Shown in pieces: positions 7,702 through 59,199 of a stretch of DNA of 64,000 bases. The translations under genes were made by a program, and so were the position numbers. Below the pieces are notes generated by a model. That model saw nothing but the letters and a program-made list of their open reading frames with translations, was not told where the DNA came from and searched no databases. Within the stretch, counting starts at the first letter, position 1. Every line of letters begins with the position of its first letter. The DNA is from an uncultured Actinomycetota bacterium (GTDB taxonomy: Bacteria > Actinomycetota > Humimicrobiia > Humimicrobiales > Humimicrobiaceae). The stretch covers positions 18,762 to 82,761 of the forward strand of contig CAZSVM010000010.1 of NCBI GenBank assembly GCA_964610315.1. Reading direction: 5' to 3'.

Positions 7702-9429
7702 ATGATTAGACTGAACAAAATAATATTGATTATTTTAATACTTTTGATATTTATAAGCGGCTGCCTCTATTCTTGTGAATATAATGATCTGGGACTTTTT
7801 AATACTGTAGTAGAAGAAAATGATACCAGTAGTGTAAATAATGCCGCCGAAGAGCTGGATATAAACAGTAAAGATTTTTTCCTGGAATCAAAAGAAAAAC
7901 AGATGGATAAGAATCCTCTAAGTGATATCAATGTAAGGAAAGCCATATTTTACGCAATAGACAGGGAAAGAATCGTAAAGGAACTGTTTGGCGAATACGG
8001 AGAGGTGCTCAATAGTTTGTTTGAAAAGAATTCCGGCTATTATTACTCTTCCTGGTCGGAGTATAATTATGATCCGGAAAAGGCAAAAGAATTTTTAAAT
8101 AAAACAGGGTATGGCATTGATAATCCGCTGTACATCACCATAGGTTCTATAAGTGATAACAGTACAAAGCAAATGATAGAGGAAATGATTAAAGAAGATT
8201 TAAGTAAAATTGGAATAAAGATATGGATTTTTAATAAAACTTCGGAAGAATGGTATAGAGATTGTGTTGGAAAAGGCGATTATGAGCTAGGCATATGGTC
8301 AATATATAATTTTGATGGAAGCAGCTTAAGTTATAATTTTAGTTCCGAAAAAATACCGCCTCTGGCAACGGAAGAGAATAAAAATTGTGAGAATTTTTAT
8401 TGGTACAAAAACACGGAAGCTGATGTAATTCTGGAAAATATTGCAAATGAAAACAACATTGAGAGAAAAAAAGAGCTAACGGATGATTTTCAGGATATAC
8501 TGGCTAATGATGCAGTAATCCTGCCTCTGTACAGCAGAATATATGCTATTGCCTACAATAATAAGAAAATAAAGAATATGGATATCAGTGTCAAAAATAA
8601 CAAGATATTCTTTAATATCGAAAAGTGGAATTTGTATGGTGAGGAGCAAACAGATGAAGATAAAACAAATGAAATTATTATCGGGTTTGAAGGAGAAGAT
8701 TACGAACCAGCCAATCTATTTAGTTCGGATTATATAAGCGACCTTTTAATGAAAGGTTTATGGGAAATCAATGAAAACGGTGAATATGAAAATGTATTGG
8801 TAGAAACGGATTCTTCTCCGGGAAATAATTTAAACAGTGCACCGAATCAAAAGGTTAAAGTTGTACTTAAAGATGGAATATTCTGGGAAGATGGGAATCC
8901 CATTACGTCAGAGGATGTAAAATATACTTATGATGTCGTTCTTAAAAATGAAAATATCTTGAATATTGATGAGGATTACTCCAAAGTTGGAGAAATTGAA
9001 GTAATAAATGAAAAAGAATTTAACATCATTTTCAAAGATGAAATTAAAAATTGGAAAAAACTTTTTGGATTTATTTTCCCCAAAGGATCACTGGATGAAA
9101 AAGATATAAACAATTTTTCTGTGGAAGATATTGTAGCAAGCGGTCCTTACAGGATAGATCAATATGTAAGCGGGGAATATTTATTACTAAAGAAAAATGA
9201 TTACTATTTTAGAGAAACACCTGACATGGATAACATAAAAATTTTATTTGACACGGATATTAATAATCTTATAAGCATGCTCAAAGATAAAGAAATAGAT
9301 TTACTAAGTATTCCCTTCAACTTGGATTTAATAAAAGGTCTGGATGAAAATAAGGATTTTAATTTATTGATTAAATCGGGTGATCTTCTGGAGCATCTGG
9401 CTGTTTGTTTGAAACCTAAAGAGAAATAG
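7702..9429 (+). CDS. lipoprotein built from a circularly permuted family-5 SBP: signal/lipobox, then SBP C-terminal half, then SBP N-terminal half
   Basis: Lipobox FISGC. Residues ~60-330 align to the C-terminal half of the upstream OppA (DKNPLSDINVRKAIFYAIDRERIV ~ DNLALREAINYAIDRQNIV; ends ...FFNIEKW ~ ...KVWFEK). Residues ~330-575 align to the OppA N-terminal half (WEDGNPITSEDVKYTYDVVL ~ FHSGRELVADDFVYSWSRV). The protein C-terminus ...CLKPKEK corresponds to the OppA position immediately before the point where this protein's mature N-terminus begins. Confidence 0.6.
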   Translation: MIRLNKIILIILILLIFISGCLYSCEYNDLGLFNTVVEENDTSSVNNAAEELDINSKDFFLESKEKQMDKNPLSDINVRKAIFYAIDRERIVKELFGEYGEVLNSLFEKNSGYYYSSWSEYNYDPEKAKEFLNKTGYGIDNPLYITIGSISDNSTKQMIEEMIKEDLSKIGIKIWIFNKTSEEWYRDCVGKGDYELGIWSIYNFDGSSLSYNFSSEKIPPLATEENKNCENFYWYKNTEADVILENIANENNIERKKELTDDFQDILANDAVILPLYSRIYAIAYNNKKIKNMDISVKNNKIFFNIEKWNLYGEEQTDEDKTNEIIIGFEGEDYEPANLFSSDYISDLLMKGLWEINENGEYENVLVETDSSPGNNLNSAPNQKVKVVLKDGIFWEDGNPITSEDVKYTYDVVLKNENILNIDEDYSKVGEIEVINEKEFNIIFKDEIKNWKKLFGFIFPKGSLDEKDINNFSVEDIVASGPYRIDQYVSGEYLLLKKNDYYFRETPDMDNIKILFDTDINNLISMLKDKEIDLLSIPFNLDLIKGLDENKDFNLLIKSGDLLEHLAVCLKPKEK

Positions 9430-17677: not shown

Positions 17678-17962
17678 ATGAATTTTAAATTGAATCATGT
17701 GGAAGGAAAAAATAAGGGTAAGCTGGTCTTATACGCTTTGAGTACCTGTCAGTGGTGCAGGAAAGTTAAAGATCTTTTGGGTGAATTGAAAGTTGATTAT
17801 TATTATGTTGATGTAGATATGGCAGGTTATAATGAGATAGAAGAAATAAAGGAGGAAATTAAAAAATATAACCCGGCTTTTAGTTTTCCAACTCTGGTAA
17901 TTGATGATAAAAACAGCATTATTGGATTTAATGAAAAAGAAATTAGAGAAAGATTAAAATAA
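17678..17962 (+). CDS. glutaredoxin-like / thioredoxin-fold protein with CxxC active site
   Basis: 94 aa. LVLYALSTCQWCRKVKDLL redox motif, and C-terminal FPTLVIDD typical of glutaredoxins. Confidence 0.7.
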   Translation: MNFKLNHVEGKNKGKLVLYALSTCQWCRKVKDLLGELKVDYYYVDVDMAGYNEIEEIKEEIKKYNPAFSFPTLVIDDKNSIIGFNEKEIRERLK

Positions 17963-18489
17963 TGAGTGTAACCCATGAAATAACGAACGAAGAAATTGAT
18001 AATTTATATACGAAATTAAAAGATGATGCAGAATCCGGCGGTTATCATTTGAATCCTGATATAAAATTTACTAAATCACTGGTAAAGGGCCTGCTTCGAA
18101 ACCAGGAAAGATATGGATACCAGTCATGTCCCTGCAGGCTTGCATCCGGCAAAAAAGAAGAAGATCTGGATATAATATGCCCTTGTGATTATAGAGACCC
18201 TGATCTGGATGATTATGGCACCTGTTACTGCGCGCTATATGTTGATAAGGAGACATTGGAGGGTAAGAAGAAAGTCAGGCCAATTCCGGAGAGGAGGATT
18301 GCAGGCGGAAGGAAGGATAAGGAGAAAAAGGAAAAAATGCCTCAAAGTAAAACTCTAGATATTAAGTATCCGGTATGGAGATGCAAGGTTTGCGGTTATT
18401 TATGTGCCAGGAAAAACCCGCCGGAAATTTGCCCTGTATGTAAAGCGGGGAGGGAAAGATTTGAAATATTCATGGAGAGCAGTAAGTAA
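17962..18489 (+). CDS. ferredoxin:thioredoxin reductase catalytic-subunit-like domain fused to a C-terminal rubredoxin domain
   Basis: CPC-x16-CPC-x13-CYC spacing (YQSCPCRLASG...IICPCDYRD...GTCYCALY) matches the FTR-B 4Fe-4S/disulfide motif. C-terminal WRCKVCGYLC...CPVCKAG is a rubredoxin CxxC...CxxC knuckle pair. Start overlaps the upstream stop (TAATG). Confidence 0.7.
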   Translation: MSVTHEITNEEIDNLYTKLKDDAESGGYHLNPDIKFTKSLVKGLLRNQERYGYQSCPCRLASGKKEEDLDIICPCDYRDPDLDDYGTCYCALYVDKETLEGKKKVRPIPERRIAGGRKDKEKKEKMPQSKTLDIKYPVWRCKVCGYLCARKNPPEICPVCKAGRERFEIFMESSK

Positions 18490-18578: not shown

Positions 18579-19757
18579 TCAGTTTATCAAGCTATCCCGG
18601 TCTGCCAGTTTTGCTATGGTCAATTTATTTTCACCAAATTTATGTGATATTTTATCGATAGCCAGGGCCAGATTTTCATCCTTCCATTCCTCTTCGGGCA
18701 GCAGGCTTTTCAACATGGAAACTGGTTTAAGTTTACTAAGATAAACTCCTATCAGTCTGATTTTTTTTCTCTTCAGGTCCAGATTTTTAAGTATGGCAAC
18801 AGAAGATCTATGGATGTCAAATATACCGGAGGTGTAATTTTTTAAGGTTATTCTCATGGTAATTGTCTTAAAGTCGGAAAATCTTACTTTGAGGGTGACT
18901 ACTTTGCCCTTATACTCTTTCAGGCGGAGATTTCTGGATATTTTTTGCGAAAGGAGAAGAAGTGTTGATCTTAGTATCCCGTAATCATCTACATCTTTAC
19001 TGAAAGTCACTTCCCTTCCTACTGATTTAGGTTCCTGATTTGGTATCACCTCTCTGTTGTCGATCCCGTTTGCCATTTTATGTATAATTCTGCCGGCCTC
19101 TCCGAACTTGTTCTCGATTATCAGGGGAGGAGTTCTGGCAAGGTCTCCTATAGTTTCGATTCCCATTGGTTTAAGTTCTTCCTCCGTAACTTTTCCCACA
19201 CCCCATAAATAAGATACCGGCAAAAGCTTAACTTTTTCCATAACTTCGCTGGTATTATCCAGTACGGTAAGGCCGTTAGGTTTTCCTATACCGGAGGCCA
19301 GTTTGGCTAAAAACTTGTTGGGTCCTATGCCTGCGGAAGAGATTAAATTGGTCTGTTCATATATCCGTCCCTTTATTTTTTTGGCCATATCCAGTTCGTT
19401 TCCAAAAAGCTTTTGACAGCCGGTTACGTCCAGGAAAGCTTCATCGCAGCCTATAAATTCCACCAGAGGGGTAAACTGAAAGAATATCTCTCTTATTCGT
19501 ATTGATTCCTTAAGATATTTTTCCATATTAACAGGGATATAAATTCCCCGGGGACATAATTTCTTTGCCCGGCTCAGAGGCATTCCCGAGTACAGGCCAT
19601 ATTTTCTTGCTTCATAGGAAGCGGTGGAAATCACTCCTCTGTTTAACGGGCCCCCCACTATCAGGGGTTTGTTTTTATATTCCGGAGTGTCTCTCTGCTC
19701 TATCTGAGCAAAGAAAGCGTCCATGTCTATATGTATTATTCTTCTTGAACCAGCCAT
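18579..19757 (-). CDS. dinB: DNA polymerase IV (Y-family translesion polymerase)
   Basis: N-terminal IIHIDMDAFFAQIEQRD catalytic motif, SIDEAFLDV-type motif (GCDEAFLDVTG) and overall Y-family architecture. Confidence 0.85.
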   Translation of the reverse strand: MAGSRRIIHIDMDAFFAQIEQRDTPEYKNKPLIVGGPLNRGVISTASYEARKYGLYSGMPLSRAKKLCPRGIYIPVNMEKYLKESIRIREIFFQFTPLVEFIGCDEAFLDVTGCQKLFGNELDMAKKIKGRIYEQTNLISSAGIGPNKFLAKLASGIGKPNGLTVLDNTSEVMEKVKLLPVSYLWGVGKVTEEELKPMGIETIGDLARTPPLIIENKFGEAGRIIHKMANGIDNREVIPNQEPKSVGREVTFSKDVDDYGILRSTLLLLSQKISRNLRLKEYKGKVVTLKVRFSDFKTITMRITLKNYTSGIFDIHRSSVAILKNLDLKRKKIRLIGVYLSKLKPVSMLKSLLPEEEWKDENLALAIDKISHKFGENKLTIAKLADRDSLIN

Positions 19758-20322
19758 ACTGATCTTGTTTTTGTAAATAAATTATTTTTAATACTCTCTT
19801 TTCTACACCTATCTTTAGCTTTTTTTAAATAGGAAAGACTTATGACATTTTTACCGATTACGGTTGCCTCACCATCCTTAAGGCAGAGGCTGCCTTCAAT
19901 TATCAAAGCAGAGTGATTCATTATTACTTTCAGATTCTTTTTGCATCTATCGGGGAAGAACACTGCTTCATACATACCATCCCTATCTTCCATGGTGCAC
20001 AGGAGCATATCTCTGCCATTTCTGGTTTTAAACTTATTATCTGACATAGATTTTGATATCCTTTTCCGTTTCTAATCAGGGTAACCAGGTGGGGGAGCAT
20101 GCTGTCGTTGCTGACACAGATCTCACAGCCGATCAGGGGCTTTATGTTTTTACTAATGGCTTCTTTATAAAATTCAACGGCTCCGCTCATTACATATTTG
20201 TCGGTGAGAGCGACTGCATTCATACCCTTTTCGGCAGCAGCATTGATCAAGTCTTTTATTTTTACCGACGACTTCATCAGACTGTATTCACTGTGTACAT
20301 GAAGATGAGAAAAAAAAGCCAT
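19736..20322 (-). pseudogene. remnant of a DNA polymerase III alpha (DnaE/DnaE2-type) gene: N-terminal PHP fragment fused out of frame to a C-terminal OB-fold fragment (about 2.6 kb internal deletion)
   Basis: ORF 19930..20322(-) begins MAFFSHLHVHSEYSL...LTDKYVMSGAVEFYKEA...KPLIGCEI, the hallmark PHP-domain N-terminus of DnaE, then degenerates after about 100 aa. Overlapping ORF 19736..20047(-) in another frame carries GRDMLLCTMEDRDGMYEAVFFPD, the DnaE C-terminal OB-domain motif. Together about 590 nt versus about 3 kb for an intact gene. Confidence 0.65.
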
Positions 20323-20381
20323 TTTACCCCGTCCGGCTGATTGAATTTATATAGGAAAATTAACTGTTTTTATATTACTAC

Positions 20382-20395
20382 CAAACATATGTTCG
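20382..20395. promoter_or_regulatory. LexA (Cheo/DinR-type) SOS box cAAACATATGTTCG upstream of the dnaE-remnant/dinB operon
   Basis: 13 of 14 match to the Gram-positive SOS box consensus CGAACATATGTTCG (GAAC-N4-GTTC core), located about 60 nt upstream of the - strand ATG at 20322. Confidence 0.55.
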
Positions 20396-20551
20396 GTCAA
20401 TAGGGATTTATAAAATTTCCTTACTAATAGTTTCAGGGTTGATTTTATGAAATTTTTATATATAATAAGAGGCTTTGTACGGTAATATTAATAGATGTTT
20501 TAATTAAATTGTTAATATTTTGGTAAATTGAATATAGAAAGGGAGTAAAAT

Positions 20552-21160
20552 ATGAAAAGGTATAATATAACTGTACATATTTTATTCTGGGTTCTGGTGG
20601 TATTTTTGTCATCTGCTGCAGCATTGATTTTGTTTTCAAAAGATGATAGGTTCGGTTCTATCTTGCCGTTTTTAAAAGATACCGAGCTTCCGCAGAAAGA
20701 AAAGATGGTGGTCAGAGAGGTTAATGAAGTGGAGAAAGAAGTTGACTGGTATTATTTTATTGCTTCCGGATATAGCGCCAATGATCCCGGGCAGGGTACC
20801 GATAATGTAACTGCAACCGGAAAAGAGATAAAAGAAGGAATTATTGCAGTAGATCCTGATGTAATTCCTCTGGGAACGAAGGTGGAGATAAAAGATATGG
20901 GAGTTTTTACGGCAGAAGATACCGGGGGAAAAATTAAAGGTAACAGAGTAGATATATATTTTGATTCAAAAAAAGAGGCAAAAGATTTTGGCAGAAAAGG
21001 TATCTGGATTAGAATTATAAACGGCAATAATAAATTGGAGTTAGCTGGTTTATACGGTGAGGTACCCTTGTATGAAAATGTACCGGTAGACGAAGATGGA
21101 AATTTATCACCATATGGATATCAGGCACTGTATGGAAATTTATCGTTGTCCGGTAATTAG
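20552..21160 (+). CDS. 3D-domain protein (MltA-like/RlpA-like cell-wall-binding domain), N-terminal TM anchor
   Basis: C-terminal YYFIASGYSANDPGQGTDNVTATGKEIKEGIIAVDPDVIPLGTKVEIKDMGVFTAEDTGGKIKGNRVDIYF matches the 3D domain with three conserved Asp. Strong RBS GGGAG. Confidence 0.75.
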   Translation: MKRYNITVHILFWVLVVFLSSAAALILFSKDDRFGSILPFLKDTELPQKEKMVVREVNEVEKEVDWYYFIASGYSANDPGQGTDNVTATGKEIKEGIIAVDPDVIPLGTKVEIKDMGVFTAEDTGGKIKGNRVDIYFDSKKEAKDFGRKGIWIRIINGNNKLELAGLYGEVPLYENVPVDEDGNLSPYGYQALYGNLSLSGN

Positions 21161-44935: not shown

Positions 44936-45844
44936 GTGAAAAAAGATTTTTTAACCTTGAAAGATTATTCCAAAAAAGAAATTGAATATATAATTGATCT
45001 TTCAGGAAAAATTAAGAAAGATAAAGATAAGTACAGTGATATTTTGAAAGGAAAGAATATAGCTCTGCTTTTCGATAAACACTCTACCAGGACCAGGTTA
45101 TCCTTTGAGGTCGGAATAAATCAACTGGGCGGCCATGCTTTAATCCTGGATTCAAAGAGCCTGCACTTAAGCCGGGGTGAATCTTATAAAGATACGGCAA
45201 AGATTTTTTCGTTATATGTTGAGGGTGTAATTATAAGGACTTTCAAACAGGAAACCATAGAAATTTTTGCGGAATATGGAACCATACCGGTGATAAACGG
45301 ACTTACAGACACTTATCATCCCTGCCAGGTGCTGGCCGATATTTTAACCCTGAAAGAAATGGGAATGCTGGATAAAAAACTTAAATTCGTTTATATGGGA
45401 GACAGTAATAATGTAACCAACAGTTTAATTATAGGGTTTTCAAAACTGGGGATAGATATAACTGTGGGATGCCCCCCAAAATATTCTCCCGGGAGTGAGA
45501 TACTGGAATATGCCAAAAGCCAGAAAGAGGGCAGTAAAATCAACATAATACATGACCCGGTTGAAGCAGTAAGCGGTGCAGATGTAGTTTATACCGATGT
45601 ATGGTTGAGCATGGGTCAGGAAACGGATAATTATAAGTTAAAGGAACTTGAAAAATATCAGGTAAACTTTAATTTGTTAAAACAGGCAAAGAAAGAAGTA
45701 AAAATAATGCACTGTCTTCCGGCTCACAGGGGAGAGGAAATTACATCCGAGGTTCTGGATAGCAAAAACTCAATTGTTCTGAATCAGGCGGTCAATCGCC
45801 TTTATGCACAAAAGGGGCTGCTGACTTATTTGTACGGAAATTAA
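44936..45844 (+). CDS. argF: ornithine carbamoyltransferase
   Basis: STRTR carbamoyl-phosphate motif and HCLPA (OTC-type, not the HPLP of ATCase). GTG start with AAAGGAG RBS at ideal spacing. Confidence 0.9.
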   Translation: MKKDFLTLKDYSKKEIEYIIDLSGKIKKDKDKYSDILKGKNIALLFDKHSTRTRLSFEVGINQLGGHALILDSKSLHLSRGESYKDTAKIFSLYVEGVIIRTFKQETIEIFAEYGTIPVINGLTDTYHPCQVLADILTLKEMGMLDKKLKFVYMGDSNNVTNSLIIGFSKLGIDITVGCPPKYSPGSEILEYAKSQKEGSKINIIHDPVEAVSGADVVYTDVWLSMGQETDNYKLKELEKYQVNFNLLKQAKKEVKIMHCLPAHRGEEITSEVLDSKNSIVLNQAVNRLYAQKGLLTYLYGN

Positions 45845-51450: not shown

Positions 51451-54267
51451 TTATTTTATTTCTATAATAACTGTAGAGCCGTAGTTAAGATATTCGCCAG
51501 CTCCCGGTATCTGATTTGAAACTTCTCCGGTATCGGAGGAATCGGGAGAAATTACAACTGTAAAACCGGCACTTTCCAGTTCGGTTACGGCATCTTCTTT
51601 AGTCATATTTATAACATCAGGTACTTCTATACCCATGCTTACTTTGATGATTATTTCAAATGTTTTATCATAAAGGGTCCCCTCTACCGGTGTCTGGGAA
51701 AATACTTTATCTATTTCTTCTTCACTTTCTTCCGTAATTACAGTAACATTATCAAATCCTAATTCACTCATCGCTTCAATTGCCTCTTCTTCGGTCATGC
51801 CGATTACATCAGGTATTAAGGCTTCAGGATTTTCACCTTTACTTACATATAAGGTTACCGCCGTTGATTTGAAAACCATCGAATCGGGGACAGGATTCTG
51901 ATGTATTACATTATCCTGAGGCTGAATATCACTAAATTCATATATTATTTCATCCACTGACAGCTCCAGATCTTCTAAAAGCTGCGTTGCATCGTTTAAA
52001 TTCATTCCGGTAAGGTCAGGCATATTGAAAGTTTTTTTACCTTTGCTTATGTATAGAGTTATGCTTAATTTTTCTCCTTCCAGTGATTCAACTATGGTTC
52101 CTGCTTCCGGTTCCTGTTTAAAAACAATATCCTGATTATATACCTCATCGAAATCATGAATTTCCTCCACTACAAAATTTAAATCTTCAAATAAGACTCT
52201 TGCTTCTTCTTCATTCATCCCTACAACATCGGGAACCTCAACTTTATTATGTATATTACAGATTTCTTCAGGTTCCTCACCTTTAATAAATATTTTCCAC
52301 TGGTTAGTTTCTTCCGGGCACCAGAATGTAGTCAGCAGATTGGATATAGTACAAATTTTAACATCGATAAGTTCCTTGTCCGGTTTTTGAAAATCAGATA
52401 TGGGTAAACCTTCCAGTGCCGAGGACATGAATTCCCTCCATATATCTGCCGGATAAGTTCCGCCAACCACTGTTCTGCCGTTTATAGGTTCCATTGGCTG
52501 ATTGGAATCGGAGTAACCCATCCATACTACGGCAACCAGTTCCGGTGTATAACCAGCAAACCAGGCATCTTTAAAATCACTGGTGGTACCTGTTTTTCCG
52601 GCGGCCGGTCTTCCTATATTGGCACCTTTACCGGTTCCGCTTTCTATAACTTTTTTTAAGATCTGGGTAATATAGTATGCTTCCGGTTTTTCCAGAATTT
52701 TTTTGTTTGCTTCGTTTTTATCGGGATCATATTCATATAATATATTACCCTGAGCATCTTCTATTTTTAATATGCATACAGGCTGCCGGTAGAATCCGCC
52801 GGAAGCAAGGGTTGAGAAAATTTTACTTACATCAAGGGGAGTTATACCGGTTTCCAGCCCACCCAGAGCGATTGCCGGGTTGCTTCCGATGTCATATATT
52901 TCCATATCACTCAAAAGGTTTTCCACATTTTTAGCTCCGACTTCCATCATAAGCTGGGCATATACTACGTTAACCGAATTTATGGTGCCGTCTACTACCG
53001 ACATCTTATCCGTATTGAATTTCTGCTCACCATAGTTATCAACCTTCCAGTCCGGGCCTTGTTCCATATCTATAGTGATAGGTCCGTTGGGATTAAAAGT
53101 ATTATTGGGGGAAATGTGCTGCTTTATGGATTCCATCAGAACTGGGACCTTAAATACGGAACCAGGCTGTCTTTTACCCTGTATGGCTATATTGAATTTG
53201 GAGGTGTTATAATCTTTTCCTCCAATGAGAGAATAAATATATCCATTTTTAGGATCAGTGCAAACCAGTGAATAGGAAGGGGCAATATCTTCAGGAAAGA
53301 CTTTTTTAAATGCATCTTCTGCTTTTTTCTGCAAATCGATATCCAGGGTGGTGTAAATACGGAGTCCTCCTTTAAAAACATCATAATCGGTAAATTTCTG
53401 GTCATATAAATTTCGTTTTACATAATCTATGAAATAAGGAGCAATTCTGCTTTCCGATTGTCCGGAACCGGCAACCAAATTTTTATTTATTTCAACTGGT
53501 GCAGCGAGAGCATCAAGATATTCAGAAGTGCCAATTAATTCCTGCTCGTACATAAGCTGCAGTACCAGATCCCTTCTTAGTTTTGCTTTTTCCATATCAT
53601 TGAATGGAGAATATAATTCGGGAGCCCTTACCAGACCGGCAAGCAATGCAGCCTGTGGAAGAGTCAGATCACTGGAATCCACTCCGAAATATATTTCGGC
53701 TGCTTTTTCTATTCCATATGCTCCCGTACCGAAATTTATGGTATTCAGATACATTTCCAGAATTTTATTTTTGGTATAGTTCCTTTCCAGCTGAATGGCG
53801 ATTAGAGCTTCATTTATTTTTCTGCGGAATGTCTTTTCGGGACTGAAATAGATATTTTTTACATATTGCTGGGTAATAGTACTGGCTCCCTGAGCCAGCT
53901 CTCCTGTTTTTATATCGGCTATTAAAGCTCCAAAAATCCTTATATAATCCACTCCCTGGTGCTCAAAGAATCTCTTATCTTCAACGGCAACAATAGCATC
54001 CCTGATATAGGGAGACATGTCATTAAAAGAAATTATTTCTCTATTTTCCTCGGCATGAAATTCGGTTATTAAAGTACCGTCAATGGCATAAACTTTGGAA
54101 GTCTGGGCAATGGGTGAGGGAGTAAGTTCTTCCAGAGTAGGGAGAGTGTTAAGGTAGTAAAAAACTACTGCTATACTGCTTACCAATATAATGGAAATAA
54201 AGACTGCTGCGGCTATTAAAAAAATTTTCAGACAGCCGCCTAATTTTTTTCGCCTGGGAGCCATCAA
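51451..54267 (-). CDS. penicillin-binding protein 1A (bifunctional transglycosylase/transpeptidase) with four C-terminal PASTA domains
   Basis: GT51 motifs (EDKRFFEHQGVD, RKINEALIA), transpeptidase SxxK/SxN/KTG (KTGTTSD), and four tandem repeats of the VPDVxGM..EEA...L...GF type at the C-terminus. Confidence 0.85.
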   Translation of the reverse strand: MMAPRRKKLGGCLKIFLIAAAVFISIILVSSIAVVFYYLNTLPTLEELTPSPIAQTSKVYAIDGTLITEFHAEENREIISFNDMSPYIRDAIVAVEDKRFFEHQGVDYIRIFGALIADIKTGELAQGASTITQQYVKNIYFSPEKTFRRKINEALIAIQLERNYTKNKILEMYLNTINFGTGAYGIEKAAEIYFGVDSSDLTLPQAALLAGLVRAPELYSPFNDMEKAKLRRDLVLQLMYEQELIGTSEYLDALAAPVEINKNLVAGSGQSESRIAPYFIDYVKRNLYDQKFTDYDVFKGGLRIYTTLDIDLQKKAEDAFKKVFPEDIAPSYSLVCTDPKNGYIYSLIGGKDYNTSKFNIAIQGKRQPGSVFKVPVLMESIKQHISPNNTFNPNGPITIDMEQGPDWKVDNYGEQKFNTDKMSVVDGTINSVNVVYAQLMMEVGAKNVENLLSDMEIYDIGSNPAIALGGLETGITPLDVSKIFSTLASGGFYRQPVCILKIEDAQGNILYEYDPDKNEANKKILEKPEAYYITQILKKVIESGTGKGANIGRPAAGKTGTTSDFKDAWFAGYTPELVAVVWMGYSDSNQPMEPINGRTVVGGTYPADIWREFMSSALEGLPISDFQKPDKELIDVKICTISNLLTTFWCPEETNQWKIFIKGEEPEEICNIHNKVEVPDVVGMNEEEARVLFEDLNFVVEEIHDFDEVYNQDIVFKQEPEAGTIVESLEGEKLSITLYISKGKKTFNMPDLTGMNLNDATQLLEDLELSVDEIIYEFSDIQPQDNVIHQNPVPDSMVFKSTAVTLYVSKGENPEALIPDVIGMTEEEAIEAMSELGFDNVTVITEESEEEIDKVFSQTPVEGTLYDKTFEIIIKVSMGIEVPDVINMTKEDAVTELESAGFTVVISPDSSDTGEVSNQIPGAGEYLNYGSTVIIEIK

Positions 54268-56522: not shown

Positions 56523-58064
56523 ATGGATTTATTAATAAGAATAGCGGCGCTGGGAATTGCATTCATAGTGGGCGGCTTGATGGGTTTTTTCTTTAGAAAA
56601 TATATCATAGATTCAAAGTTAAGTTCAGCAGAACAGAAAGCAAATTCATTACTCAGCAATGCTAAAAAGGAAGCAGCTACATTAAAAAAAGAAATTATGC
56701 TGGAAGGTAAAGAAGAAATTCAAAATTTGAAAACCCATGCCGAAGAAGAAATAAAGAAACAAAAATTCGAGCTTAAAAAAAGAGAGGATAGATTGTTATC
56801 CAGGGAGGATTCCATAGAGAAAAAGACTCATTATGTAGAAAAGAAAGAGCAGGAAGTAAACCAGAGAAAAGAGGAACTTGAAGGTAAAAATAAAAAATTG
56901 GACGAGGTATTAGATAAGGAAATACTGAGGCTGGAAGCTATTGCCGAACTGACCAAGGAAGAAGCAAAAGCAATTCTGATTAAGAAAATAGAAGATGAAG
57001 CAAAATATGAATCCGTAAAAGAATTAAAAAATATCGAAGCAAAGTTAAAAGAGGAAGCGGATACCATGGCAAAAAAAGTAATATCTCAAGCCATACAGAG
57101 ATGCGCACTTGATCATGTAAGTGAATCTACAGTATCGGTAGTAAATTTACCCAATGATGAGATGAAGGGAAGAATAATAGGAAGAGAGGGAAGGAATATT
57201 AGAGTTTTTGAGAATCTTACCGGTATAAATATAATCGTTGATGACACTCCTGAAGCAGTGATTCTGTCATCTTTTGATCCGGTGAGAAGGGAAATTGCCA
57301 GAGTAACTCTGGAAAATCTGATAATGGATGGAAGAATTCATCCGGCTAAAATCGAAGAAATGTATGAAAAAGCCAGCAAAATTATCAATAACGAGATAAA
57401 AGTAGAAGGCGAGCAGGCTGTTTTTGATGCAGGGATATCGGAATTGAATCCGGGAATAGTAAAAGTACTGGGAAGGCTAAAATACAGAACCAGTTATGGA
57501 CAGAATGTTCTCCTTCATTCCAAGGAAGTTGCTTATATTGCCGGGATAATTGCATCCGAACTGGGTATGAATGTTAAAAAGGCCAAAAGGGCCGGCCTGC
57601 TTCATGATATAGGAAAGGCTCTAACTCATGATATAGAAGGGTCACATGCAATAATCGGAGCGGAACTGGCTAAAAGATTGAATGAAGAAGAAGAAGTATG
57701 CCATGCCATTAAAGCACATCACAACGAAATAGAAGCAAGCACGGTACTGGATGTAATTATACAGGCGGCAGATCAGATATCAGGCGGAAGGCCCGGCGCA
57801 CGAAGAGAAACCCTGGAAAGCTATGTAAAAAGGCTGGAAAGTCTGGAGAAAATTGCCACAGAATTTAAGGGTATAGAGAAGGCATACGCTATACAGGCCG
57901 GAAGAGAAATAAGGGTAATGGTTAAACCAGAAGAGGTTAACGAGGATATGTCCATTGTTCTGGCCAGGGAGATAGCAAGAGAAATAGAGAAAGAAATGGA
58001 GTATCCGGGACAGATTAAAGTAACGGTCATAAGAGAAAGCAGAGCAGTCGAGTATGCAAAATAG
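56523..58064 (+). CDS. rny: ribonuclease Y
   Basis: N-terminal TM helix ([22 protein letters not shown]), coiled-coil, KH domain ([12 protein letters not shown]) and HD domain (LLHDIGKA...H...D). Start at ATG 56523 with GGAAGGAAGG RBS. Confidence 0.9.
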
Positions 58065-59199
58065 TTCTGATTTAAAAAAATTTCTGTCTGAGCTTAATAT
58101 AAAAGATTCGCTGAATATCGAAGAAGATCTGGGAGATGGGTACGTCAGGCTGAAAATTTCCGAAGCCGAAAGGAGACAGGCTCTTCAGGATATAAACTGT
58201 GTCGAAGATATAATAGTGGAGTTGTTAAGAAACAGCAGGGATGCAGGCAGCAAGAATATTTTTATCGGAACTAAAAAAATTGAAGATAAAAGAAGAAAAA
58301 TATATTTTGTGGATGATGGCTGCGGAATTCCTCCCAATCTTCAAAATCTTATTTTTCAGTCAAGGGTAACCTCCAAGCTGGACAATGGAATAAGGGATTC
58401 TTACGGATTTCATGGTCGGGGAATGGCTCTGTTTTCAATCAAGTTAAATGTAGATGAGATAAAGATAGTTTTTTCCGACCGGTTAAAAGGAGCCTCATTT
58501 TATGTAGATATAGATCTCCTGGAAATCACCGAAAAAAAGGATCAATCGGCAATACCGCAGATAATTAAAATGGATGGTGATTTGAGTATAATTGGCGGTG
58601 TAAACAATATAATAAAAACTATAATAGAGTTCCAGCTTCAGAACAGCGATATTAACTTCTTTTACGGGAGCCCAACCCAGATACTGGCTACTATGAGGGA
58701 GATTGTGAAAAAGAATGAGAATTACAATAATTATCCAAAATTTGACCAATGGGATAAGTTAATTGATTTTGTGCAAAAGAATAATATAAAAGTAACCAAA
58801 ATTCCGGTTCTTACCGATAACTATAATCTGATGGAAGTTGTTTCCAGAAATATATTTAATATGGATATATCTCAGAGAGGCATTCAAAGGATTATATATA
58901 ATGAGATCAAGGAACTGGAGCCATTAAAACTTACTGCAGACGGTAACCTGGAAGAACAAATAGAAAGCCGGCATGAAAATAAACCGGATAAAAAAAGGGA
59001 GAGTAAATTGACTCTTTATGATGAATCAAAACTGGCCGGCAGGTTTAAAGATGAAGAGATAAGATGTATAATTGATACCGTAGAAAACAAGATTAAAGAA
59101 CTGGGAAACAAATATTTCATTACTACTGGTAAAAATATAGAATGTAAGAAGGCAAATAATATTATAAAATTATCAATTGAATTGAAGCAAAAAGAATAA
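58054..59199 (+). CDS. GHL-family ATPase resembling the N-terminal ATPase domain of MutL (no C-terminal dimerisation/endonuclease domain), translationally coupled to rny
   Basis: Bergerat-fold motifs in MutL-like form: [16 protein letters not shown] (ELVENSLDAGA), DDGCGI (DNGCGI), [12 protein letters not shown] (GFRGEALASI). 381 aa. Start overlaps the rny stop by 11 nt. Confidence 0.55.

Follow-up and report, generated by a model that had tools for sequence, protein, structure and literature searches.

Organization of the dnaE-dinB locus

We analyzed a stretch of 64,000 nucleotides from an uncultured Actinomycetota bacterium (contig CAZSVM010000010.1), here referred to as the window, with a focus on a putative operon for the DNA polymerases DnaE and DinB. 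All features of this cassette are located on the minus strand, from position 20400 down to 18579 (Table 1). In the direction of transcription it starts with a putative promoter whose spacer contains a palindrome resembling the binding site of the SOS repressor LexA. Two overlapping open reading frames (ORFs) follow, here named ORF1 and ORF2, each carrying one end of a dnaE gene, and the cassette closes with an intact dinB. An original prediction from the sequence alone had described the locus as an SOS-type module with a decayed dnaE and an intact Y-family polymerase gene.

Relatives were found with the dinB product in a genome scan and a metagenome scan. The closest shared 77-80% amino acid identity in DinB, the loci L001, L085, L086 and L087 among them 77-79%. 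They were labelled as Actinomycetota metagenome-assembled genomes (MAGs), and related proteins carried the label Candidatus Humimicrobiaceae. The four loci named share the gene order of the window, with threonyl-tRNA synthetase (ThrRS), tRNA-Gly, a bPH_3 gene and a gene for a 3D-domain protein on one side of the cassette. On the other side, genes for a FeThRed/rubredoxin protein and a glutaredoxin (L001, L087) or a GGDEF-HD gene (L085, L086) were present. Between the 3D-domain gene and dinB, all four carry an intact dnaE encoding 1068-1075 amino acids, and its stop codon overlaps the start of dinB. The comparison of related loci suggested in the original prediction thus yielded an intact dnaE at the syntenic position.

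Table 1. Features of the dnaE-dinB locus in the window and positions of both operator types in related loci
Feature	Locus	Position	Strand	Basis or remark
-35 hexamer TTGACC, cassette promoter	window	20395..20400	-	consensus scan; invariant across four syntenic relatives (alignment A1)
Cheo-type LexA-like candidate operator CGAACATATGTTTG inside the promoter spacer	window	20382..20395	-	GAAC-N4-GTTC-type palindrome
-10 hexamer TAATAT	window	20372..20377	-	consensus scan; invariant in alignment A1
ORF1, 130 aa, opens at ATG 20322	window	20322..19930	-	Pfam PHP match
dnaE 5' remnant, codons 1-97 (N-terminal PHP half)	window	20033..20322	-	PHP profile match; blastn homology ends at 20033
Stop codon of ORF1, after its out-of-frame continuation past the junction	window	19932..19930	-	
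Deletion junction AAG/TTT/AAAACC	window	20026..20033	-	anchored comparisons with L001, L085, L086, L087
Heptamer T_TTA_AAA in the ORF1 frame, formed at the junction	window	20032..20026	-	
ORF2, 103 aa, -1 frame relative to ORF1	window	20047..19736	-	PF01336 OB fold match
dnaE 3' remnant, ~96 codons (OB fold without first strand, C-terminal tail; stop 19738..19736)	window	20029..19736	-	
Intact dinB (DNA polymerase IV), 392 aa	window	18579..19757	-	Pfam and NCBIfam matches
Divergent promoter-like site TTGATT-16-TATAAT of the 3D-domain gene	window	20439..20466	+	10/12 matches; block conserved in A1
Gene for membrane-anchored 3D-domain protein, divergent from the cassette	window	20552..21160	+	Pfam 3D 1.2e-17
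TATAC palindrome	lexA-headed loci	L002 3996-4013; L004 983-1000; L163 4786; L164 4768; L166 4945; L167 1821; L168 3893; L170 3947; L171/L172 3966; L173 3820		
GAAC-type box	lexA-less loci	window 20382-20395; L001 4724; L085 2726; L086 2719; L087 2724; L081 7913		

A single internal deletion in dnaE

ORF1 matched the Pfam PHP profile with 7.7e-31, covering only profile positions 1-94 of 164. Its first 97 codons correspond to the start of dnaE, in line with the PHP start of about 100 residues followed by a collapse of the frame that had been predicted. ORF2 matched positions 11-68 of the 75 in the OB fold profile PF01336 with E = 1.5e-4 and a score under the gathering threshold; alignment to intact orthologues makes its relationship to the DnaE C-terminus clear. 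A fragment of the C-terminal OB domain therefore lies in an overlapping frame that runs into the start of dinB, again as predicted. The 5' remnant shared 73% amino acid identity with residues 1-96 of the L001 DnaE, and the 3' remnant shared 62% with its final 96 residues.

Comparison of the window with L001 by blastn resulted in two collinear blocks. The first ends at 20033, which corresponds to L001 position 5093, and homology resumes at 20029, which corresponds to L001 position 7729. The loci L085 to L087 gave the same breakpoint anchors. Where L001 and L087 have 2,635 nt, the window has 3 nt (TTT), a net loss of 2,632 bp that agrees with the predicted 2.6 kb. This loss is of the form 3n+1 and therefore changes the frame between the two stumps. 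Lost with DnaE residues 98-975 of 1072 were the C-terminal half of the PHP domain, all of the polymerase core, the HhH domain and the initial strand of the OB fold. With an intact syntenic orthologue, a missing internal segment and a disrupted reading frame, the dnaE of the window is a pseudogene that arose by a single internal deletion of about 2,632 bp.

The deletion might also be an artefact of assembly or a minority allele in a population whose dnaE is full-length. It was confined to the window contig among the seven clade members sampled, its junction was unmatched in other metagenome contigs, and assembly quality within the group can be poor, as the many frameshifted genes of L081 and L082 demonstrate. 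However, neither a repeat nor extended microhomology on which a de Bruijn or overlap assembly could have collapsed was found at the breakpoints in the orthologues of L001, L085, L086 and L087. Moreover, the remaining window shows long intact ORFs and perfect synteny, and a loss of 2.6 kb is unlike an error of the homopolymer type. We consider an artefact or minority allele improbable. The absence of repeats and microhomology favours illegitimate recombination as the origin of the deletion and disfavours a repeat-driven collapse.

Two short DnaE N-terminal proteins, P0011 and P0012, which are encoded on the long contigs L081 and L082, were considered as independent truncations at the same site and rejected as sequencing or assembly errors. 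In L081 (8001-13113) and L082 (7500-13000), the cassette genes dnaE and dinB as well as unrelated neighbours are split into several ORFs, and L082 contains long homopolymer runs. The split genes most likely reflect indel errors of long reads and not biology. These errors call for caution over short "PHP-only" proteins in databases.

Age of the deletion

No stop codon interrupts either stump. Relative to L001, the ratio of nonsynonymous to synonymous substitution rates (dN/dS) was lowest for dinB (0.06), followed by the PHP stump (0.12) and the OB stump (0.21). Distances to the outgroups L002 and L004 were compared as well. For the PHP stump, dN was 0.33 and 0.30 in the window and 0.29 and 0.32 in L001; for the OB stump the values were 0.53 and 0.49 in the window and 0.50 and 0.41 in L001. 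The window stumps thus show no clear excess distance over the intact gene of L001. Stop-free stumps without excess substitutions indicate that nearly all of the divergence predates the deletion and accumulated under selection. Judging by these substitutions, the deletion is recent and lineage-specific. All four of the seven clade members whose contigs reach far enough upstream have an intact dnaE. Relatives closer than about 80% DinB identity were sought in the genome and metagenome collections and none was found, which precludes a finer dating.

A further change in a cassette dnaE was observed between L171 and L172, two metagenome contigs that are 99.9% identical. TATGAA is replaced by TAAAAA at 7717-7722, which introduces a stop codon into the part of the L171 gene that encodes the OB domain. 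This may represent a second inactivation of dnaE or a polishing error, the latter because the differences between the two contigs cluster as 2-3 adjacent bases.

The intact dinB and its translation

The dinB product scored 360.7 bits against the NCBIfam equivalog model of DNA polymerase IV (Pol IV; NF002677, cut-off 256). The Pfam domains IMS, IMS_HHH and IMS_C were all present, and the dN/dS value given above reveals no sign of decay. The predicted Y-family polymerase is therefore intact. Its translation contains the motifs IHIDMDAFFA and GCDEAFLDV, whose DxD and DE residues we take to be the catalytic acidic residues by analogy with D8, D103 and E104 of E. coli DinB.

The start of dinB lies 22 nt inside the 3' end of the dnaE remnant (19736-19757), and all relatives show the same 22-nt offset, with the dnaE stop codon overlapping the dinB start. 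No Shine-Dalgarno sequence precedes the dinB ATG in the window or in L085, L086 and L084 (three of five relatives lacking it), and a clear one was found only in L001 (AGGAG). A dinB without its own Shine-Dalgarno sequence that overlaps the dnaE stop suggests translational coupling, so that dinB was probably once translated together with dnaE. Ribosomes starting at the dnaE ATG of the window would terminate at 19930, 173 nt before dinB begins. This implies that the coupling would be broken unless the ORF2 frame is translated, and translation of dinB may be weakened.

One way to restore the coupling would be a -1 frameshift at the heptamer T_TTA_AAA, with the stumps expressed as a PHP-OB fusion of 195 amino acids. 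The heptamer is a perfect X_XXY_YYZ site located exactly at the junction in the frame of ORF1, and slippage by -1 leads into the OB frame, whose end overlaps the dinB start in the same manner as the intact dnaE of the relatives; the missing Shine-Dalgarno sequence of dinB would fit as well. A stimulatory structure, however, was not found: folding of the 92 nt from 20036 to 19945, which begin 4 nt before the heptamer and extend downstream of it, gave a minimum free energy z-score of +0.61. There is also no Shine-Dalgarno-like stimulator upstream. Half a PHP domain (94 of 164 positions) joined to an OB fold that lacks its N-terminal part would probably not fold, and no short PHP-OB homologue was present among the matches listed, the short ones being fragments from contig ends or frameshifts. 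Furthermore, A/T-rich heptamers are common in a genome of 35% GC, and the one at the junction is unique to the window contig and thus not conserved. We therefore rejected programmed frameshifting, for which we see hardly any chance, and regard the heptamer as a coincidence.

The type of DnaE lost from the cassette

The deleted polymerase had been predicted to be of the DnaE2 type. Function and architecture agree with this assignment, whereas the family criteria do not. Against the DnaE2 model NF004225 (cut-off 939), the intact orthologues of L001 and L002 reached only 662 and 661 bits; the match ran nearly end to end (positions 6-1044 of 1047). The DnaE1 model NF004226 gave 971 and 941 bits, below its cut-off of 1002 as well, with positions 6-1068 of 1146 covered and the last ~78 unmatched. 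The closest solved structures are the DnaE1 proteins of E. coli and Thermus. In the intact orthologues the PDIDID motif is kept and the PHP motif reads TDKY instead of TDHG.

None of the cassette operons contained imuA, imuB or ImuB-C, so that the partner genes of DnaE2 are lacking. The operons have no additional genes, and the partner of DnaE is a Pol IV of the active type. With the DnaE2 type the orthologues share the absence of a C-terminal domain after the OB fold and the link to LexA. The lost polymerase is thus a predicted accessory DnaE, DnaE2-like in architecture and context and outside the DnaE2 family by the criteria tested. Its deletion likewise implies an accessory, dispensable polymerase and not the replicase.

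The dnaE gene of Bacillus subtilis (DnaE3) is SOS-inducible with a LexA box, essential, and not paired with a Y-family polymerase in one operon. The cassette resembles it in that a DnaE gene is placed directly under a Cheo-type operator, but here the gene has been deleted, implying dispensability.

Operons linked to LexA in which a Y-family polymerase occurs together with a DnaE paralogue have been described (Timinskas & Venclovas 2019, PMC6511836). Like the cassette studied here, the imuA-imuB-dnaE2 (ImuC) cassette and its variants combine a Y-family polymerase and a second C-family polymerase in one operon with a LexA-type operator, often with lexA as the first gene. The dinB2-dnaE2 pair of S. 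coelicolor is another of these variants (PMC6511836). The present cassette differs by the lack of imuA, imuB and ImuB-C, by a Y-family partner that is a Pol IV above the equivalog cut-off with its catalytic residues intact and by a gene order in which dnaE precedes dinB; the window moreover has its DnaE partner reduced to a deletion pseudogene. In Bacteroidetes, operons with an active PolY2 and DnaE2 lack ImuB-C, both polymerases appear to be active, and lexA is present often but not always (PMC6511836). These Bacteroidetes operons are the nearest described system.

Promoter and GAAC-type box

The putative cassette promoter is a consensus match only and consists of TTGACC, a spacer of 17 nt and TAATAT. 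The 14-mer in the spacer, CGAACATATGTTTG, matches the idealised consensus of Firmicutes and Actinobacteria, CGAACATATGTTCG, in 13 of 14 positions. The latter is the B. subtilis site that was reportedly established by Au et al. 2005. Allowing one mismatch or less, this was the only such site in 64 kb, with 0.01 expected per window. The looser pattern GAAC-N4-GTTY was also found once, against 2.37 expected, and is not significant on its own. No further box was found in a search across the window. From the end of the box to ATG 20322 the distance is 59 nt. The near-consensus box about 60 nt upstream of the ORF, on which the original prediction was built, is hence present.

Alignment of the intergenic regions of five lineages showed an island of near identity, CT-TTGACC-(G/A)AACATATGTT(T/C)GG-..-GTAATATA. 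The box itself is kept as C(G/A)AACATATGTT(T/C)G in L001, L085, L086 and L087. Its half-sites vary: CGAAC...GTTTG in the window, L085 and L086, and CAAAC...GTTCG in L001 and L087, with one consensus half-site kept in each. Additionally, the same 14-mer occurs about 75 nt upstream of dnaE in L081, which groups with L002, L172 and L173 in another clade, judged by the identity of its dnaE and dinB.

The box thus combines a palindromic match to CGAAC-N4-GTTCG, overlap with the putative promoter and conservation in orthologous promoters. The Cheo box, or actinobacterial SOS box, likewise is palindromic with a spacer of 4 nt, lies within promoters for DNA-damage tolerance and is conserved in orthologues. 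In contrast to the Cheo box, the cassette LexAs of this class go with a different palindrome, ACTATAC-N4-GTATAG.

LexA and the two operator types

In L002 and L004, a lexA gene is located directly upstream of dnaE (TIGR00498, 209 and 218 bits). A LexA profile search starting from these two proteins, followed by look-ups of the gene context, revealed the order lexA-dnaE-dinB in every case examined (L163, L164/165, L166/167, L168/169, L170, L171/172 and L173). In total, 11 more distant loci have an operon that begins with lexA, and these often share the flanking 3D, bPH_3 and ThrRS genes of the window. Assemblies with a lexA-headed cassette include GCA_054607035.1, GCA_051744245.1, GCA_018400395.1 and GCA_003565495.1. 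Since lexA heads the same operon in distant relatives, the cassette is tied to the SOS response by its gene content.

The operators divide along the same line (Table 1). All 11 lexA-headed loci carry an invariant palindrome, ACTATAC-A(A/T)AT-GTATAG, upstream of lexA and no GAAC-type promoter box. All six lexA-less loci, including the window, carry the GAAC-type box and no TATAC palindrome. The only ATAC-N4-GTAT site of the window lies at 45591, inside the ORF at 44936-45844. L081 lacks lexA independently of the window clade; upstream of its CGAAC box, it retains a relic left half of the TATAC site (ACTATACAAAT) together with a TATAAT. This dichotomy suggests either two repressor specificities or an operon rewired after the loss of lexA. 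The box had also been proposed to mark the LexA regulon of the lineage. This role is doubtful, since every LexA found in the class is encoded in the cassette and preceded by the ACTATAC-type palindrome.

A LexA encoded outside the cassette was sought in the class, but all eight LexA homologues looked up were cassette-encoded (including P0121 of L002 and P0123 of L004). With the LexAs of the class tied to the other palindrome, the repressor acting on the Cheo-type box of lexA-less lineages is one that we infer; in the window it would be a canonical LexA encoded elsewhere.

Two-LexA systems provide a precedent. In Pseudomonas putida, the lexA2-imuA-imuB-dnaE2 operon is said to have a cassette-dedicated LexA2 (Abella et al. 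2004/2007, reportedly). There too, lexA heads a polymerase cassette behind a palindrome of its own that differs from the canonical box; for the cassettes studied here a second LexA is hypothesised. The lexA operon of Geobacter sulfurreducens serves as another case for comparison (cited in PMC6511836).

The strict dichotomy and the independent lexA-less state of L081 with its relic half-site would also be compatible with a different view of the palindrome. It could be the operator of a non-LexA repressor, or of a second canonical LexA unrelated to the one of the cassette. The cassette LexA of the class would then recognise ACTATAC-N4-GTATAG, and lineages without the cassette lexA would have rewired the operon to another repressor. 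Against this, the box is a near-perfect match to GAAC-N4-GTTC, which experiments have established as the LexA motif in Firmicutes and Actinobacteria (PMC4951493), and it stands in front of translesion polymerase genes. Furthermore, an arrangement with two LexAs would still leave the box a LexA/SOS operator. We consider this alternative unlikely, though less so than an artefact of assembly.

Proposed origin and regulation of the cassette

We read the locus, with a probability of roughly 75%, as the remains of a damage-inducible dnaE-dinB two-polymerase operon that is typical of a low-GC actinobacterial class (Candidatus Humimicrobiaceae-like MAGs) and whose DnaE has been deleted. A LexA-type repressor would hold the sigma-70-type promoter via the GAAC-N4-GTTC-type operator in its spacer, and derepression would follow RecA-stimulated cleavage of LexA. 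The resulting transcript would first carry the dnaE pseudogene, its stumps out of frame after one deletion by illegitimate recombination, and then the intact Pol IV gene, whose protein would be the only functional product. Coupling of dinB translation to the upstream gene may now be weakened.

Several observations weigh against this reading. All LexA homologues of the class that were retrieved associate with ACTATAC-N4-GTATAG and not with the CGAAC box, and a search for lexA, recA and uvrA within the 64 kb found none of them. The deletion is carried by one assembly only. An exact search of public metagenome contigs for 26 nt spanning the junction (junction region AAGTTTAAAACC) gave no match, and an exact look-up found the dinB product of the window not on record.

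More tentatively, lexA-dnaE-dinB may constitute an undescribed type of SOS "mutasome" in which an active Pol IV is paired with a DnaE1-like accessory polymerase shortened at its C-terminus. Two wirings of this cassette would exist. In one, a self-contained cassette LexA would act on ACTATAC-N4-GTATAG; in the other, lexA would have disappeared in at least two independent events, with the operon now part of a canonical GAAC-N4-GTTC regulon. The window would then represent the next step, with DnaE lost and Pol IV kept. We regard this extension as possible, though rather less than probable.

Neighbouring genes

The 3D-domain gene divergent from the cassette keeps its position and orientation in L001, L085-L087, L163, L164, L166, L168 and L170, and in most related loci it is divergent from lexA. 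Its putative promoter in the window does not overlap the LexA-type box. SOS-associated genes for cell wall or division functions adjoin lexA in other bacteria, namely yneA in Bacillus and Rv2719c in Mycobacterium, and the position of the 3D-domain gene resembles theirs.

On the other side of the cassette, a gene at 17962-18489 (+) encodes a FeThRed catalytic-chain domain fused to a C-terminal rubredoxin-like domain, and a glutaredoxin-like gene is adjacent to it (17678-17962, +). In many related loci the two genes are likewise kept next to the cassette.

The GC skew of the window is strongly positive, and nearly all long ORFs are located on the plus strand, which is probably the leading strand. 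Among the few genes of at least 150 aa on the minus strand are the dnaE-dinB operon and, at 51451-54267, a PBP1A gene containing PASTA repeats. By their strand, both would be orientated head-on to replication.

A protein of 381 amino acids is encoded at 58054-59199 (+), directly 3' of the RNase Y gene and 5' of miaB-miaA, a place in which mutL is often found. Its sole match was an N-terminal GHKL ATPase domain (HATPase_c_3), and it could be a MutL-like protein that is short or divergent. The Rfam scan of the whole window identified three tRNAs only.

Significance

The pseudogene itself is ordinary, being one deletion in one uncultured lineage, and as gene decay it is well documented; the cassette that contains it has been little described. 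It provides evidence of the natural-experiment kind that the cassette DnaE of the class is dispensable, with its Pol IV partner under purifying selection. Our current understanding is not overturned by these findings, and the cassette with its two operator types is a more interesting by-product than the pseudogene. The lexA-dnaE-dinB cassette is widely conserved in Humimicrobiaceae-like Actinomycetota and lies outside the DnaE2/ImuB definition of known mutagenesis cassettes. The presence or absence of lexA, set against the two operators, makes it a tractable comparative case for the rewiring of SOS operators and repressors.

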